Below are positions 10,865 through 22,908 of a stretch of DNA of 32,000 bases, in pieces. The first letter of the stretch is position 1; each line of letters starts with the position of its first letter. This DNA comes from Nitrosococcus oceani ATCC 19707. Its GTDB lineage: Bacteria; Pseudomonadota; Gammaproteobacteria; Nitrosococcales; Nitrosococcaceae. Location: assembly GCF_000012805.1 (NCBI RefSeq), contig NC_007484.1, positions 2,430,001 to 2,462,000 on the forward strand. The letters are read 5' to 3'. Position numbers and translations under genes: made by a program. Under the pieces are notes generated by a model. The model was not told the DNA's origin and did no database searches. It was given only the letters and a program-made list of their open reading frames with translations.

Positions 10865-13402
10865 TTATAAAGCGGGCTCTTTTCTTACTCTTTCATAAAC
10901 TTCAATCTGGTCCCCCACTTTAACGTCCTTATAATCCTTGACGCCAATACCACATTCGGTGCCTGCCCGAACCTCCTGGACATCATCTTTAAAGCGACGC
11001 AAGGATTCTAGCTGGCCTTCAAAAACGACAATGTTATCGCGCAGTACACGGATAGGATTATTGCGACGCACGCTACCCTCAATCACCAAGCAGCCCGCAA
11101 TAGCTCCCAGCTTAGGTGAGCGAAATACGTCATCTACCCGGGCCAAGCCAATGATTTCTTCCCGGTACTCAGGGTCTAGTATACCGATTAAAGCCCCTTT
11201 TATTTCATCAATAGCATTATAGATTACACTATAATAGTGTAAATCAATCCCTTTTTCAGCAATCAGACGGCGTGCCGCCGCATCCGCTCGAACGTTAAAA
11301 CCGATAATCACGGCGTTAGAAGCAACCGCTAAATTAACATCTGTCTCATTAATACCCCCGACACCCGCAGCGACAACCTTAACCCTCGCCTTATCAGTAG
11401 AAAGTTTAGTCAAGGAATCGGAAAGAGCTTCAGCGGATCCTTGCACATCGGCCTTAATTACGAGATTAAGCGCTCTAATTTCTCCTTCTTCCATCTCATT
11501 GAACATATTCTCAAGCTTGGCAGACTGCTGCCGCGCCAGCTTAACTTCCCGTTCTTTAGCTTGACGATGCCCAGCAATTTCCCGCGCTCTACGCTCATCC
11601 GGCACCACCACCGCCTCATCGCCCGCATTGGGTGTCCCCGACAAACCTAGAATTTCTACCGGTGTTGATGGTCCCGCTTCTATTATCTCTTGACCTCTTT
11701 CGGTAAGCATGGCCCGAACCCGACCGGTTTCCACCCCACTGAGAAGAATGTCGCCCTTACGTAAAGTACCACTTTGCACTAATATTGTAGCTACCGGACC
11801 GCGCCCCTTATCCAACCGGGATTCGATAACAACACCGCGAGCAGGCCCTTCAGCAGATACCTTAATCTCCATTACTTCAGCCTGAAGCAAGATAGCTTCA
11901 ATTAGATCATCAATTCCCTCCCCAGTCTTAGCTGAGACATTGACAAACTGAGTATCCCCTCCCCACTCCTCGGTAATCACATCGTGATTAGCAAGCTCTT
12001 GCTTGACCCTATCTGGATCGGCATCAGGACGGTCAATCTTATTAACCGCCACAACAAGTGGCGCGCCTGCTGCACGAGCATGCTGAATAGCTTCCACAGT
12101 CTGTGGCATAGCGCCATCATCTGCGGCAACCACCAAAATAACAATATCGGTGACTTTAGCCCCCCGTGCGCGCATCGCAGTAAAAGCTGCATGGCCTGGA
12201 GTATCAATAAAAGTAATCTCACCTTTATCCGAACGCACCTTATAGGCGCCAATATGTTGGGTAATGCCTCCTGCCTCAGACGTGGCAACCTTAGCTCGCC
12301 GGATATAATCGAGCAGCGAGGTTTTGCCATGATCCACATGGCCCATAATAGTAACCACTGCAGCCCGTGAAACCTGCCTACTTACTTCCTGTTCAGCTTG
12401 GACCAACTCTAACTCAAGCGTATTTTCTTGTAAGCGCTTAGGCTTATGACCCATTTCCTCCACGACGATGGTCGCCGTATCTTGATCTAAAACCTGATTG
12501 ATAGTTGCCATAATACCCAATTTCATTAGCGCTTTAATCACTTCAGCCGCCTTCACCGACATTTTTTGAGCTAACTCGGCAACAGTCATCGTCTCGGGAA
12601 TAGAGACATCATGCACGATAGGCGCCGTTGGTCTTTCGAATCCATGCTTAGCTGCGGGTGCCGCTTTTTGGGGCCGAAATTTTTTACGTTTACTGGTACC
12701 GGCCTTGCCAGGAGCTATGTGTAACTCTTTGCGGCCAAACTTAGTTCCCCGTTGTTTTTGCTCAGATTCCCTATCCTCGGAGCGAAACCGAGGTTTCGCC
12801 TTCCGGCTAGCAGGCTTTTCCGTTCTAGCTGGTTCCAACCCGTTCTTTGGTTTTTTTTCCACATCAAGACGGCGCTTAACCTGAGCTTCGGCCTGGCGCT
12901 TGGCTTCCTCCTCAGCGGCCTGGCGCTTGGCTTCCTCCTCAGCGGCCTGGCGCTTGGCTTCCTCCTCAGCGGCCTGGCGCTTGGCTTCCTCCTCCGCTAT
13001 AAGCCGCGCTTCCCGTTCTTGTTGCGCCTGAACTCCTGCCTGCGCCTCTTCTTCCTCTCGCTGGCGTTCCGCTAAACGCTCTTGCTCTAGTATCGCGCTG
13101 CGCTTAATGTAGGTACGCTTTTTACGCACTTCAACATTGACTGTCTTAGAACGCCCTCCCCCCGCATTCACTTGAATCTCGCTATGACTCCGACGATTTA
13201 GAGTAATTCTTTTAGGCGTTGCAATCTCTACGCTAGCGCCATGGCTATGCCTCAAGTACCTCAACAGCTGCAACTTTTGCGCTTCTGTAATCGCCGCATC
13301 CTCCCGGTCGACCCCAATGCCCGCTTCGCGTAGCTGCTCAAGCAAGCGACCGACAGGAGTGCCGACCACATCGGCTAGCTGCCGTACGGTTACCTCACTC
13401 AT
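10865..13402 (-). CDS. infB: translation initiation factor IF-2
   Basis: 845 aa with the GTPase motifs [17 protein letters not shown] and NKID. The ATG overlaps the nusA stop (ATGA at 13399..13402). Confidence 0.96.
12890..12997 (-). repeat. 4 x 27-bp in-frame tandem repeat inside infB
   Basis: The plus-strand unit ggcctggcgcttggcttcctcctcagc occurs four times head to tail; the last copy ends ..ctccgc. It encodes (AEEEAKRQA)x4 in the IF-2 N-terminal region. Confidence 0.95.
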
Positions 13403-14944: not shown

Positions 14945-15400
14945 TCAACATTCTGGTACTAACCGCGCTTTTTTAATGCCTTCTAGTGGCAATTCAAACT
15001 CCTCTCCAGCCACTAAAATAACCACGCGATCACCACGAATTCCCCGCAGTAAGCCTTTAAATTCGCGGCGCCCGTTTAGCGGTTTGCTCAGAGTGATAGA
15101 TGCCTCCACTCCCGTAAAACGCTTGAAGTGCTCTTCCGTAAATAATGGCCTATTCAGCCCAGGGGAAGAAATTTCAAGAGTATACGCTGACGCCATTAAC
15201 TCCTCTACATCTAGTAGGGCACTAATTTGATGGCTTGCTCGCTCACAGTCGTCTATCGTTATTCCAGATGGAGTATCAATATATATACGCAAAAGAGCCC
15301 CTTTGCCTACCGATGATAAGCGCTCTACACCTACCAATTCATAGCCAAGAGCGGCCACCACTGGTTCTACTAATTCGCTAATTCGTCTATCGCCCCACAT
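14945..15400 (-). CDS. rimP: ribosome maturation factor RimP
   Basis: 151 aa immediately upstream of nusA. RimP-like motifs are present ([26 protein letters not shown]). Confidence 0.9.
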
Positions 15401-15513: not shown

Positions 15514-15590
15514 TGGTAGCGGGGGCAGGATTTGAACCTGCGACCTTCGGGTTATGAGCCCGACGAGCTGCCAGACTGCTCCACCCCGCA
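15514..15590 (-). tRNA. metY: initiator tRNA-fMet (anticodon CAU)
   Basis: The reverse complement reads tgcggggtggagcagtctggcagctcgtcgggCTCATAAcccgaaggtcgcaggttcaaatcctgcccccgctacca. It is near-identical in layout to E. coli tRNA-fMet: three G-C pairs closing the anticodon stem, an unpaired 1:72 position and an encoded CCA. The location upstream of rimP-nusA-infB is the same as for metY. Confidence 0.93.
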
Positions 15591-15709: not shown

Positions 15710-16030
15710 TTTGGGGTTTCACCATGACTAATTTCAATTTTGTTCCTACAAAATCTTATCAGCCTGGAGAATTCGCGCTTCAATGGGTGCCTTGGGCTGG
15801 CCATGACTTAGCGCGCAAGGCCCTCAGTTTGGTATCACCCTCCACGCGCATTACTTTCCTTCCTACTGAGGGTAGGTCGCGCTTGTGGCAACGGGAAAAT
15901 CATAGCGCGAATTCATGGCAAAACGCAAGTAACCTGGCCCTCGCGCTCGACGCGCCGTTGCACTTTTCGCCTGTCTGCAGCAGACAGGCGGACACGCACA
16001 GGCAGGCAACCTCGCTAGGGGGTCATTAAA
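15710..16030 (+). repeat. modular leader repeat, long form (copy A); carries the listed 101-codon ORF 15724..16029
   Basis: The 5' 40 nt (15710..15749) match rc(22803..22842) at 34/40, and every mismatch is a transition. The 3' module has a 19/19 identity (15990..16008 vs rc 22772..22790), a shared cctgtctgc and a similar G-run tail. Confidence 0.75.
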
Positions 16031-16048
16031 CATCCATGCTTAATTCCA

Positions 16049-16933
16049 ATGAAAACATCTGTTGAACAGCTCATTAAACAAACATCAGAACTCCTGGAAC
16101 GCCTTGAAAATTTGCTGCCGGCTCAGGCACCAGAGCCCGAGTGGGAGCGCTCGGTTGCCTTCCGCTGGCGCCGCATCCACCCACGGGATCCTGGCCACTT
16201 AGAAGCGGTTCCCCATACCCATAACATTCAATTGAACGAACTCCGTGGTATTGAAACGCAAAAGCGGCAAATCGTTCAGAACACCACTCAATTCCTCTCT
16301 GGCTTACCAGCTAACAACATCCTTCTCTGGGGCGCCCGCGGCACCGGCAAATCCTCGCTGATTAAAGCATTGCTCAATGCCTTCTCCAGCCAAGGCCTGC
16401 GTCTTATCGAGGTCGATCGGCACGAATTGCTAAACCTGCCTGATATTGTCGCGCTTACTTCCCATCGCCCGGAACGCTTTATTCTATTCTGCGATGACCT
16501 CTCTTTTGATGCTAACGATCCTAGTTATAGAGCACTTAAGGTCGTACTCGATGGTTCCGTTAGCGCCACACCAGAAAATGTCCTAGTCTATGCTACCTCT
16601 AACCGCCGCCACTTATTGCCCGAGTACATGGAAGAAAACCAACAAAGCCAGTTAGTAAAAGGGGAAATTCATCCCAGCGAAGCGACGGAGGAAAAAATCG
16701 CGCTTTCTGATCGATTTGGTCTCTGGTTATCCTTCTACCCTTTTGATCAGCAAAGCTATATCGAGATCGTCAGAGCCTGGCTCGATTATTATGGCGTCAC
16801 TCCTGAACTAAGGGAACAGGCCACCGAGGCTGCCCTCCAATGGGCTTTGCTGAGAGGCTCCCGTAGTGGCCGTACCGCATGGCAATTTGCTCGTGATTTC
16901 GCCGGCCGTCACAAATTCAGCAATGCTCCTTAA
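16049..16933 (+). CDS. DUF815-type AAA/P-loop ATPase
   Basis: 294 aa with Walker A GARGTGKSSLIKA and Walker B-like ILFCDDLSF. Length and pattern fit the DUF815 ATP-binding family. Confidence 0.8.
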   Translation: MKTSVEQLIKQTSELLERLENLLPAQAPEPEWERSVAFRWRRIHPRDPGHLEAVPHTHNIQLNELRGIETQKRQIVQNTTQFLSGLPANNILLWGARGTGKSSLIKALLNAFSSQGLRLIEVDRHELLNLPDIVALTSHRPERFILFCDDLSFDANDPSYRALKVVLDGSVSATPENVLVYATSNRRHLLPEYMEENQQSQLVKGEIHPSEATEEKIALSDRFGLWLSFYPFDQQSYIEIVRAWLDYYGVTPELREQATEAALQWALLRGSRSGRTAWQFARDFAGRHKFSNAP

Positions 16934-21337: not shown

Positions 21338-22513
21338 CTACCAAGCCGCCCGGGCGGCTCTCACGGCAACCCCTGACTCGATACTGGCCCCCAAATCATG
21401 AAGCACCGTCTCCAAAGCCCCCAAAAAGATCAGTACATTGCGCGGATTAGAGCCATAACCCATCAGACCAACACGCCAAAGTTTTCCCGCCATTTCACCT
21501 AAACCCGCCCCAATTTCCAAGCCATATTCTTGCAGCAGCCGGGCGCGCACTGCAGCATCGTCAACACCCGCCGGGATAGTGATTGCATTGAGCTGGGGAA
21601 GTCGCTCCTTTTCCTTGACTGCAAGCTGTAATCCCATTGCTTCAATACCCGCCCGCAGGGCTTGATGATTACGCTGATGGCGCTCCCAAGCATTTTCCAA
21701 ACCTTCTTCCTGCAAAACAACCAACGCCTCATGGAGTCCATAAAGAGCATTAATAGGCGCGGTGTGGTGATAAGCACGCTTGCCATCCCCTCCCCAATAA
21801 CCCATTACCAGACTCAAATCGAGAAACCAACTCTGTACTTTGGTTTGTCGAGCCCGAATTCGCTCAATAGCCCGCTCGTTAAAACTTACTGGCGATAATC
21901 CGGGGGTACAGGAAAGACATTTCTGGCTCCCGGAATAAATGGCATCGATGCCCCACTCATCTACCTTCACGGGACTACCCCCAAGCGATGTCACCGTATC
22001 CACTATCGTTAAGCAACCGTGGCGACGCGCTATTTCCACGAGCGTCTTCGCATCGGAACAAGCGCCGGTAGAAGTTTCCGCATGGACAAAAGCCACTACC
22101 TTAGTATCTGGATGAGATTTAAGAGTTTCTTCAAGCTTATTGGGATCTACAGCTGCACCCCAAGTATCCTCCACGAGGACAGGGATCGCGCCACAACGCT
22201 CGGCATTTTCCTTCATCCGCCCACCAAATACGCCATTTTGGCAAATGATAACCTTATCGCCCGGCTCCAGCAGATTCACAAAACAGATTTCCATCCCCGC
22301 ACTGCCTGGCGCGGAAACAGGGAAAGTCAGTTCGTTTTTGGTTTGAAAAGCATATTGCAGGAGAGTCTTCATTTCATCCATCATGGCAATAAAGACTGGA
22401 TCTAAGTGGCCTATCGTTGGCCGGGACATGGCCTCAAGAATACGGGGATTCACATCGGACGGGCCCGGTCCCATAAGAATACGGGCGGGAGGATGAAAGG
22501 AAGTAATAGACAT
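21338..22513 (-). CDS. class V aminotransferase (serine-pyruvate / alanine-glyoxylate aminotransferase family)
   Basis: 391 aa with N-terminal MGPGPS and the PLP-lysine motif SGSQKCL. AGGAG lies 6 nt upstream of the ATG at 22513. Confidence 0.85.
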   Translation of the reverse strand: MSITSFHPPARILMGPGPSDVNPRILEAMSRPTIGHLDPVFIAMMDEMKTLLQYAFQTKNELTFPVSAPGSAGMEICFVNLLEPGDKVIICQNGVFGGRMKENAERCGAIPVLVEDTWGAAVDPNKLEETLKSHPDTKVVAFVHAETSTGACSDAKTLVEIARRHGCLTIVDTVTSLGGSPVKVDEWGIDAIYSGSQKCLSCTPGLSPVSFNERAIERIRARQTKVQSWFLDLSLVMGYWGGDGKRAYHHTAPINALYGLHEALVVLQEEGLENAWERHQRNHQALRAGIEAMGLQLAVKEKERLPQLNAITIPAGVDDAAVRARLLQEYGLEIGAGLGEMAGKLWRVGLMGYGSNPRNVLIFLGALETVLHDLGASIESGVAVRAARAAW

Positions 22514-22750
22514 GGGTTCTCCTCTAGAAAATAATGGTTATTACGAATTTGGGTCAGGCTAGCAGTATCCCAGCAGAACGGATAATGAGTGGCCACTTAC
22601 TCGTCCCCTCTTAAAATACCGGAGAGTCGCTTCGGTGAAAAAACAGTTTAATTCCCCTGCCTCAAAAATTATCCTGCTCTCTACCTGGTAACAAGGCTCA
22701 ATAGTCTACCGAGGATGGTGAGAAATACCAAGTTAGCCCCAGCTCCTCAC

Positions 22751-22842
22751 TCAAATGCCCCCCAGTGAGAGTGCCTGCCTGTGCGTGTCCACACGCAGAC
22801 AGGTAGGAATAAAATCGAAATCAGTCATGGCGGAACTCCAAA
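22751..22842 (-). repeat. modular leader repeat, short form (copy B); contains a 25-codon mini-ORF 22751..22828
   Basis: The minus strand reads tttGGAGttccgccATGactgatttcgattttattcctacctgtctgcgtgtggacacgcacaggcaggcactctcactggggggcattTGA. It is homologous to both ends of copy A and encodes MTDFDFIPTCLRVDTHRQALSLGGI. Confidence 0.75.
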
Positions 22843-22879
22843 TATAATAGCGTGGCCTCAATCCCAGAGTTCAGAACAA

Positions 22880-22908
22880 GGCGGAAAAAGCCGCCTGCTT
22901 TTTCCGCC
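22880..22908. other. strong 11-bp-stem hairpin in the ORF-free gap
   Basis: ggcggaaaaag-ccgcctg-ctttttccgcc forms a perfect 11-bp stem. The loop sequence ccgcct can alternatively pair with aggcgg at 22879..22884. Confidence 0.6.

Follow-up and report, generated by a model that had tools for sequence, protein, structure and literature searches.

A short open reading frame in Nitrosococcus oceani very probably lies on a dead fragment of a TnpB-derived non-autonomous transposable element

Results

A short open reading frame between a terminator-like hairpin and an aminotransferase gene

The window analyzed here is a 32,000-nt stretch of the Nitrosococcus oceani ATCC 19707 genome (NC_007484.1, positions 2,430,001 to 2,462,000); positions are those of the window unless a genome coordinate is given, and the features are collected in Table 1. 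On its minus strand an ATG (22828-22826) opens a frame of 25 codons, MTDFDFIPTCLRVDTHRQALSLGGI, that is closed by a TGA (22753-22751), and a GGAG at 22839-22836 lies 7 nt 5′ of the ATG, exactly as an earlier note on this DNA had described. That note had compared the short frame (copy B) with a longer one (copy A) on the plus strand, which starts MTNFNFVPT and ends DTHRQATSLGGH-TAA, again as reported. The similarity of the two is far above chance, an 18-mer common to both having two occurrences in the window vs 0.02 expected, and it proved to be that of a family of about 60-68 loci genome-wide.

Copy B lies 35 nt 3′ of a terminator-like hairpin. On its other side a promoter-like TTGGTA-17 nt-TAGACT precedes a gene that a Pfam match identifies as a class-V aminotransferase. 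The motif was not called by a consensus promoter scan (8/12 matches); it is conserved in four species, as seen in alignments with the sister species G003, G004 and G005, and is probably the promoter of the aminotransferase gene, in which case copy B would lie in an untranscribed spacer. All three sister species keep the gene and its leader, and copy B is absent from the orthologous locus in each. These observations bear directly on the idea that copy B encodes a working peptide of 25 residues, a leader or regulator that would belong to a family whose ends are conserved and would control the aminotransferase operon downstream. The GGAG, the ATG and a short ORF co-directional with the downstream gene are what such a peptide would be expected to show, and a second copy lies upstream of another operon. 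However, copy B sits 5′ of the conserved promoter-like motif and 3′ of the terminator-like hairpin, and three sister species have the same gene and leader without it.

Two further features of the window may be recorded here. A sub-threshold match to the rimP leader (42.5 bits vs 47; 15234-15353, minus strand; L001 1234-1353) sits between tRNA-Met (15514-15590) and rimP-nusA-infB-like ORFs, and five tandem 27-nt repeats (12862-13023) lie inside an 845-aa ORF that is probably infB (10865-13402, minus strand).

Table 1. Features of the two copies and related loci. Positions are those of the window unless preceded by a genome or contig label.
Feature	Position	Strand	Basis or remark
Mini-ORF of copy B	22751-22828	-	ATG in element terminus, TGA in host flank
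Copy B, internally deleted, left-end-truncated gene-less element of PATE/MITE type, 88 nt	22754-22841	-	Alignment with short forms; terminus search
RE terminal module TTGGAGTTCCGCCATGAC...CCTAC	22803-22841	-	Other strand corresponds to last 39 nt of guide-RNA (omega/reRNA) scaffold
30-nt hairpin module CTGTCTGCGTGTGGACACGCACAGGCAGGC	22773-22802	-	13 genomic copies, all in this element family
Left-end remnant ACTCTCACTGGGGGGCATT	22754-22772	-	Terminal AACATCCATGTTTAATTCCAA(N)G missing
Terminator-like G+C hairpin	22879-22896		Context, just upstream of copy B
Promoter-like TTGGTA-17 nt-TAGACT	22703-22731	-	3′ of copy B; precedes class-V aminotransferase gene (21338-22513)
Copy A, complete 341-nt element	15711-16051	+	Same family as copy B
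101-codon frame of copy A	15724-16029	+	Inherited from open frame of family consensus
RAGATH-18-like guide-RNA scaffold core in copy A	15772-15848	-	Opposite the ORF; RF03064, model positions 1-71
Hairpin instances	22773-22802; 15966-16010; G000:C1:161663, 1121293, ~1686560		
tnpB-bearing parent elements	L034/L031 (G000:C1:478309-479822); L036, L054, L055, L059, L060, L063, L074		
Metagenome loci with patchy antisense stop depletion	L146, L118, L101, L110, L127 and others		

The small elements share both ends with a tnpB-bearing insertion sequence

A BLAST search with copy A against its own genome (3,481,691 + 40,420 bp, 50% G+C) returned 91 HSPs at about 68 loci, with 57-66 left termini in 3.5 Mb. 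The copies are dispersed and have sharp common termini in unrelated flanks. One end of the element reads TTGGAGTTTCGCCATGAC... and the other ...GGGGGGTCATT(C/A)AACATCCATGTTTAATTCCAA(N)G, and between them the element is modular, with an ATG-side end module, a middle part, another module and a hairpin that is optional, before the terminus on the far side is reached. No target duplications are visible at the copies, and the conserved ...TTCCAA(N)G on the side of the left end (LE) makes the exact boundary and motif ambiguous.

At C1:478309-479822 both ends of the small element enclose an ORF of 384 aa on the opposite strand, with Pfam matches to OrfB_IS605, Cas12f1-like_TNB and HTH_OrfB_IS605, that is, a TnpB. 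Further tnpB-bearing copies occur in the genome at 95%, 85% and 83% identity, and in these too both end modules flank tnpB. Because the ends enclose tnpB on the opposite strand, the ATG-side end is the right end (RE) of the transposon read antisense; in the full insertion sequence (IS) the RE terminus is 91 nt past the tnpB stop. The LE of the parent carries a ribbon-helix-helix gene of 52-55 aa that is divergent from tnpB (RHH_1, 22.0 bits vs a cut-off of 20.5), and the second module of the small elements consists of the last 9 codons of this arc gene plus the LE. Judged by their sequence, the small elements of ~340 nt are thus the two ends of a TnpB/Arc insertion sequence, gene-less and of the PATE/MITE type: an RE that would carry a guide-RNA scaffold on the tnpB strand, joined to an LE that includes the 3′ end of the Arc-like gene. 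The terminus with GGAG and ATG, read antisense, would be the 3′ end of the guide-RNA scaffold together with the cleavage end of the transposon, and the similarity of copies A and B at the mini-ORF ‘C-terminus’ is that of sub-terminal LE sequence. The earlier note had suggested that, if translated, the copies would be leader peptides whose ends are invariant and whose middle varies. The invariant ends are the two transposon ends, and the varying part is the remainder between them. A search of Pfam with the 101-aa frame of copy A and with a 527-aa antisense product gave no match. Two intact genes for Y1 TnpA (Y1_Tnp) are present in the genome, and this candidate enzyme may mobilize the family in trans.

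Several further sequence features were seen around copy A and its parents. The RE-terminal GAGTTTCGCCATG (15711-15726) is complementary to CATGGCGAAAC in the LE, at the arc 3′ end (15905-15920), and it also pairs, in 15 of 16 positions, with the codons that specify LEFGHA close to the 5′ end of tnpB (L031). In the conserved terminus CCAATG of copy A, the final three bases (16049-16051) are the start codon of a DUF815 ATPase gene (16049-16933). In G004 the DUF815 ATPase gene has its own ATG and an element lies ~125 nt upstream; in G005 a 5′-truncated element of another subfamily abuts the ATG of the same gene.

A probable guide-RNA scaffold opposite the open frame of copy A

The reRNA/omega-RNA scaffold that serves IS607-type TnpBs has RAGATH-18 at its core, and about 60 nt of 3′ flank precede the guide (Cell Res 2024, PMC11061315). 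Copy A matches the RAGATH-18 model over its full length with 34.6 bits (E 5e-5), below the gathering score of 44.9, and the best match genome-wide, at 36.2 bits, is also below this threshold. The distance from the match to the terminus of copy A is 61 nt, the geometry published for TnpB reRNAs. Besides copy A, three small copies gave sub-threshold matches, as did two further tnpB genes at their 3′ ends, and in the full IS a diverged version of the scaffold overlaps the tnpB 3′ end. The matches share the tnpB strand and lie about 60 nt from the element end, level with the 3′ end of tnpB or beyond it. No match to RAGATH-18 was found in copy B. At the gathering threshold Rfam returned only the tRNA in the whole window, a permissive Rfam search of 16 other loci returned nothing, and the RE of the full IS gave noise and no RAGATH-18. 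An assignment of the family to IS607 was considered and not adopted, as no serine-recombinase TnpA lies beside tnpB; the genome has two resolvase-domain genes, neither of which adjoins a tnpB. Since the small element shares the ends of the IS and keeps the guide-RNA scaffold, copy A is PATE-like.

Copy B is an internally deleted and truncated member of the family

A terminus search placed the end of copy B at genome position 2452841. Copy B aligns base for base with two short forms of the family (C1:801683 and C1:1191766) up to ...GGGGGGCATT and diverges right after CATT, so that the last ~24 nt of the element's left end are absent. Its RE terminus recurs within 2 mismatches in about 57 genomic copies with unrelated flanks. 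The earlier note had read the size difference as a roughly 220-nt insertion in copy A. This is mistaken, as copy A is one uninterrupted frame of 101 codons and it is copy B that is derived, by internal deletion. The sequence that follows the break, TGAGTGAGGAGCTGGGGCTAACTTGG..., is orthologous host DNA in an element-free sister species, and the TGA of the mini-ORF is therefore not element sequence; in G005, which lacks the element, it corresponds to a TGAG. Lacking the last ~24 nt of the LE, copy B is no longer mobilizable, whereas copy A and the two other short copies are complete at both ends. The homology to G005 ends exactly at the truncated end of copy B (22743-22754) and the upstream neighborhood differs; copy B may mark a rearrangement or deletion junction.

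The 30-nt hairpin of copy B, CTGTCTGCGTGCGGACACGCACAGGCAGGC, occurs 13 times in the genome, always inside the TnpB-derived small-element family and at two alternative sites: after ...TTCGC in the LE part (9 copies) or after ...CCTAC in the RE part, where AAAAC... follows (2 copies). The short form, in which CCTAC, the hairpin and ACTCTC adjoin, is represented by three copies, copy B among them. A deletion between two 30-nt hairpins at the alternative sites could generate such a short form of ~110 nt, and copy B would be a short form minus the last ~24 nt of the left end. A hairpin of ~30 nt was seen nested at three sites in all, the LE site, the RE site and, in reverse orientation, the RE of a sister-clade IS.

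As single-stranded DNA the hairpin of copy B folds with -9.6 kcal/mol (z -2.3). Across copies, hairpins of differing sequence occupy the one LE site, and all fold well; structure is kept at this site and sequence is not, which is constraint at the level of the nucleic acid. We considered and rejected the hairpin as the transposon's own sub-terminal hairpin, given tnpB-bearing copies without it and its alternative sites. With unrelated hairpins filling the same LE site elsewhere, the ~30-nt hairpin resembles a tiny palindromic insert in its own right. A stable fold, kept while the sequences at the site differ, would also suit a cis-regulatory hairpin, whether terminator, attenuator or protein-binding site, that the host has co-opted for the neighboring genes. 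MITEs have been co-opted by hosts in other bacteria, for example Correia elements. However, no T-run follows the hairpin, the autonomous IS copies do without it, which makes it an add-on of some small copies, and the locus works without copy B in the sister species.

Small copies carry no coding-type constraint

Whether the short frames are constrained as coding sequence or as nucleotides had been left undecided, and a comparison of codon-position substitution patterns over the genomic copies had been proposed. Among 37 ungapped copies the 16 terminal bases are 2.5% variable, vs 14.8% for the next 23 bases, and variability summed by codon position (1/2/3) is 1.51 / 1.19 / 0.70, that is, third positions are the least variable, the reverse of what a leader peptide would lead one to expect. 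The same 37 copies encode 24 different 9-residue N-termini. From the ATG, the ORFs of the small copies run for 13 to 134 aa and have many different ends; the hairpin is read in all three phases, and no two of 10 copies end alike. Stops interrupt the ATG frame in all but 5 of 23 complete small elements. In 21 long copies we counted 17 stop-creating substitutions where 21.9 would arise at random, and 10 indels, of which 7 are frameshifting. Stops and frameshifting indels thus accumulate at about the neutral rate in the small copies.

The stop codons that had appeared to coincide (taa/tga) are not homologous. The TAA of copy A is element sequence and lies in CATTAAAC; the majority of copies show CATTCAAC at this place, which contains no stop. 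The TGA of copy B belongs to the host flank. In one of the two remaining short forms an additional G is present and the frame continues past the element, and the other has TCA where copy A has TAA. A conserved peptide with a conserved stop is not what these copies share, and the leader peptide again fares poorly.

The conservation of the SD-like GGAG and of the ATG was correctly observed, and extends to nearly all copies. Its cause lies elsewhere: both are kept because they fall inside the near-invariant 16-nt RE terminus. Moreover, sister-clade elements that lack the ATG and the antisense frame still keep the terminal ...AAACTCCAA (GGAG antisense; CTCCAA on the tnpB strand), and the ‘SD’ is therefore explained by the transposon end. 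Copies with frameshifts or stops in this frame, or without ATG and SD, had been named beforehand as the sign of nucleotide-level conservation; frameshifts and stops are indeed common and neither the stop nor the C-terminus is conserved, but ATG and GGAG persist in nearly all copies. For copy B and the other small copies, then, these tests favor the nucleotide side of the question. For the family as a whole translation from the ATG may still take place, since the frame of the tnpB-bearing parents, described below, appears to be selected open.

The orientation of the copies relative to neighboring long ORFs is unbiased (33:24, 30:27), and they occur in all kinds of contexts. This lack of bias gives no support to a leader role, nor to an anti-polarity role, at the small copies.

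An element-long antisense frame is free of stops in most tnpB-bearing parents

In the full IS the frame that starts at the RE ATG runs for 509 codons, codon-aligned antisense to tnpB, and exits the element at the LE. We compared parents from four species of the genus (76-100% TnpB identity, 79-83% nucleotide identity to L034); these congeners were reached through a genome search, a contig search having returned only relatives at 38-40%. In nine of the 11 end-to-end IS copies the ATG frame contains 0 stops along 1314-1516 nt, and the other forward frames of the same copies have 15-32. The two exceptions look decayed, one having an ATA start and the other frameshifts in tnpB. This pattern is what one would expect if the GGAG and ATG of the RE are a genuine start and the antisense frame of the parents has been selected to be stop-free for the transit of ribosomes, not for a protein. 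A possible benefit of such transit is that host transcripts reading into the element would stay translated and so escape Rho-dependent termination (polarity). The ORFs of copies A and B would then be decaying vestiges, maybe translated when transcribed, which is compatible with copy B being a dead fragment.

The codon usage of tnpB points in the same direction. The tnpB genes of the Nitrosococcus clade contain 0 TTA, CTA or TCA codons vs about 8-11 expected, those of sister clades contain 2-17, and genome-wide these three make up 3.2% of codons. Codons ending in A are otherwise normal in the clade's tnpB (10% in four-fold families, 48% in two-fold families), and at its four-fold sites divergence amounts to 0.3-0.9 substitutions per site. 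Synonymous codons alternate in 19 of 24 conserved Leu columns, and TTA or CTA is never among them in intact copies. The absence of the three codons despite this synonymous variation and four-fold divergence favors selection for transit. The amino acids of the antisense frame are not conserved: their identity is 55-66% vs 80-88% for TnpB, third-position changes dominate, and the position pattern of tnpB is normal (3rd >> 1st > 2nd). Only the openness of the antisense frame is kept; its amino acids are unconstrained. Furthermore, the non-coding LE has frame-shifting indels between copies, yet each copy has 0 stops in its own ATG frame, vs 1-8 in the alternative register, and the sister clade that lacks the antisense frame also lacks the RE ATG. 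Both are as expected if ribosomes are to pass from one end to the other. A search of the literature brought up no relevant account of antisense ORFs within tnpB or IS elements, which is weak evidence either way.

Antisense stop depletion recurs, patchily, among distant TnpB relatives

Of 80 metagenomic relatives, 16 showed antisense stop depletion in a gene-internal test, most strongly one with 0 stops observed vs 18.7 expected at 44% G+C. The depletion is scattered over at least 8 separate places on a tree of 105 TnpBs, and its distribution takes at least 8 changes to account for. It is patchy among distant relatives, in that close sisters can have 0 stops vs 19 expected, or 20 vs 20. An unrelated IS605 in the same genome (G000:C1:427671-429380; tnpA + tnpB, 34% TnpB identity) likewise has a codon-aligned antisense frame of 570 codons over both genes, with 0 antisense stops vs 12.2 expected. 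Recurrence on the tree and in an unrelated element again speaks for selection for transit. On the other hand, the depletion test flags 27 of 1192 long ORFs in the genome, one of them an ordinary leuC-like gene. The null is accordingly liberal, and for the coding part codon-level selection on the sense strand could produce the same signal. Elsewhere among the depleted clades the frame begins close to the tnpB stop and not at the end of the element, with no clear SD in evidence, which does not fit a start in the RE. Nor do the small copies, with neither frame protection nor an orientation bias, behave as if transit mattered to them.

Discussion

Our data make it very probable that copy B is a dead remnant of a non-autonomous transposable element and not a gene. 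Several observations count against this: an ATG and a GGAG with good Shine-Dalgarno spacing occur in almost every copy, the family consensus is open in the ATG frame and in no other, and the RAGATH-18 match stays short of the Rfam gathering score. Moreover, with the parents' frame seemingly held open by selection, ribosomes may start at the RE ATG whenever the strand is transcribed, in copy B as elsewhere. Copy B itself is an ordinary element of a known kind; what its PATE-like nature does not explain is the element-long antisense frame of its parents.

For that frame, selection for ribosome transit is plausible but unproven. We take seriously the idea that the RE motif is a genuine start and that the frame is kept open for transit, although on balance the points set out above tip slightly against it. 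More tentatively, we suggest that some TnpB insertion sequences, those of the Nitrosococcus clade behind copies A and B among them, carry an antisense frame that makes no protein of use, kept open by selection from an SD and ATG in the RE through the guide-RNA region, tnpB, arc and the LE, and gained and lost repeatedly; its most likely use would be against polarity or in tuning tnpB and the guide RNA, and the mini-ORF of copy B would be a fossil start. If so, this would be a new way for a transposon to burden its host less or to control its nuclease, and a constraint to respect when tnpB genes are recoded. That copy B acts as a co-opted cis-regulatory hairpin for its neighbors is quite unlikely. 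The leader peptide is largely refuted, and we reject it as having hardly any probability left.

For annotation, we recommend that ORFs beginning MT(D/N)F(D/N)F..., together with their ‘SD’ and hairpins, be masked as TnpB-derived PATE repeats and not recorded as small proteins or leader peptides. This family accounts for many of the ‘conserved intergenic modules’ in Nitrosococcus.

Small mobile repeats that ribosomes can read through, with a consensus open in one frame, are familiar from the Rickettsia palindromic elements (RPEs) and other MITEs. RPEs sit in frame within host genes; in contrast, the Nitrosococcus copies lie between genes, come with an ATG of their own and undergo neutral decay.

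The parent IS resembles the IS605-family transposons that carry Arc (ribbon-helix-helix) genes (bioRxiv 10.64898/2026.09.24.754181; 10.1101/2023.11.20.567912) in that its RHH gene of 52-55 aa is divergent from tnpB. These two papers do not mention an element-long antisense frame. Unlike the Arc transposons, copy A keeps only the last 9 arc codons, and copy B none.

The scaffold is like that of the IS607-type TnpB reRNA (PMC11061315; RF03064), with a core GUGGAG ... UGAAGC..GAA about 60 nt 5′ of the RE terminus on the tnpB strand, and the guide would be flanking DNA. It differs in that the family scores below threshold (34.6 vs 44.9 bits) and in that the motif of the full IS is not entirely 3′ of tnpB but overlaps its end. 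Unlike IS607-type elements, no tnpB here has a serine-recombinase TnpA beside it, and the conserved flank on the LE side is ...C-N-TTGG, not AGGAG.

Also close are the PATE-like minimal non-autonomous elements of the IS200/IS605 family, which keep an omega RNA (Meers et al. 2023, PMC10055086). Like these, the family described here is gene-less and multi-copy, has an LE and RE in common with tnpB-bearing elements of the same genome, and would retain its guide-RNA scaffold on the RE side for use in trans; its copies are dispersed with sharp termini, their ends are those of a gene-bearing IS, and they have no conserved coding capacity. Unlike PATEs, the family carries the tail of an Arc-like gene in its LE part and an extra 30-nt hairpin nested at alternative sites, and copy B, deleted and truncated further, has just 39 nt of the scaffold.
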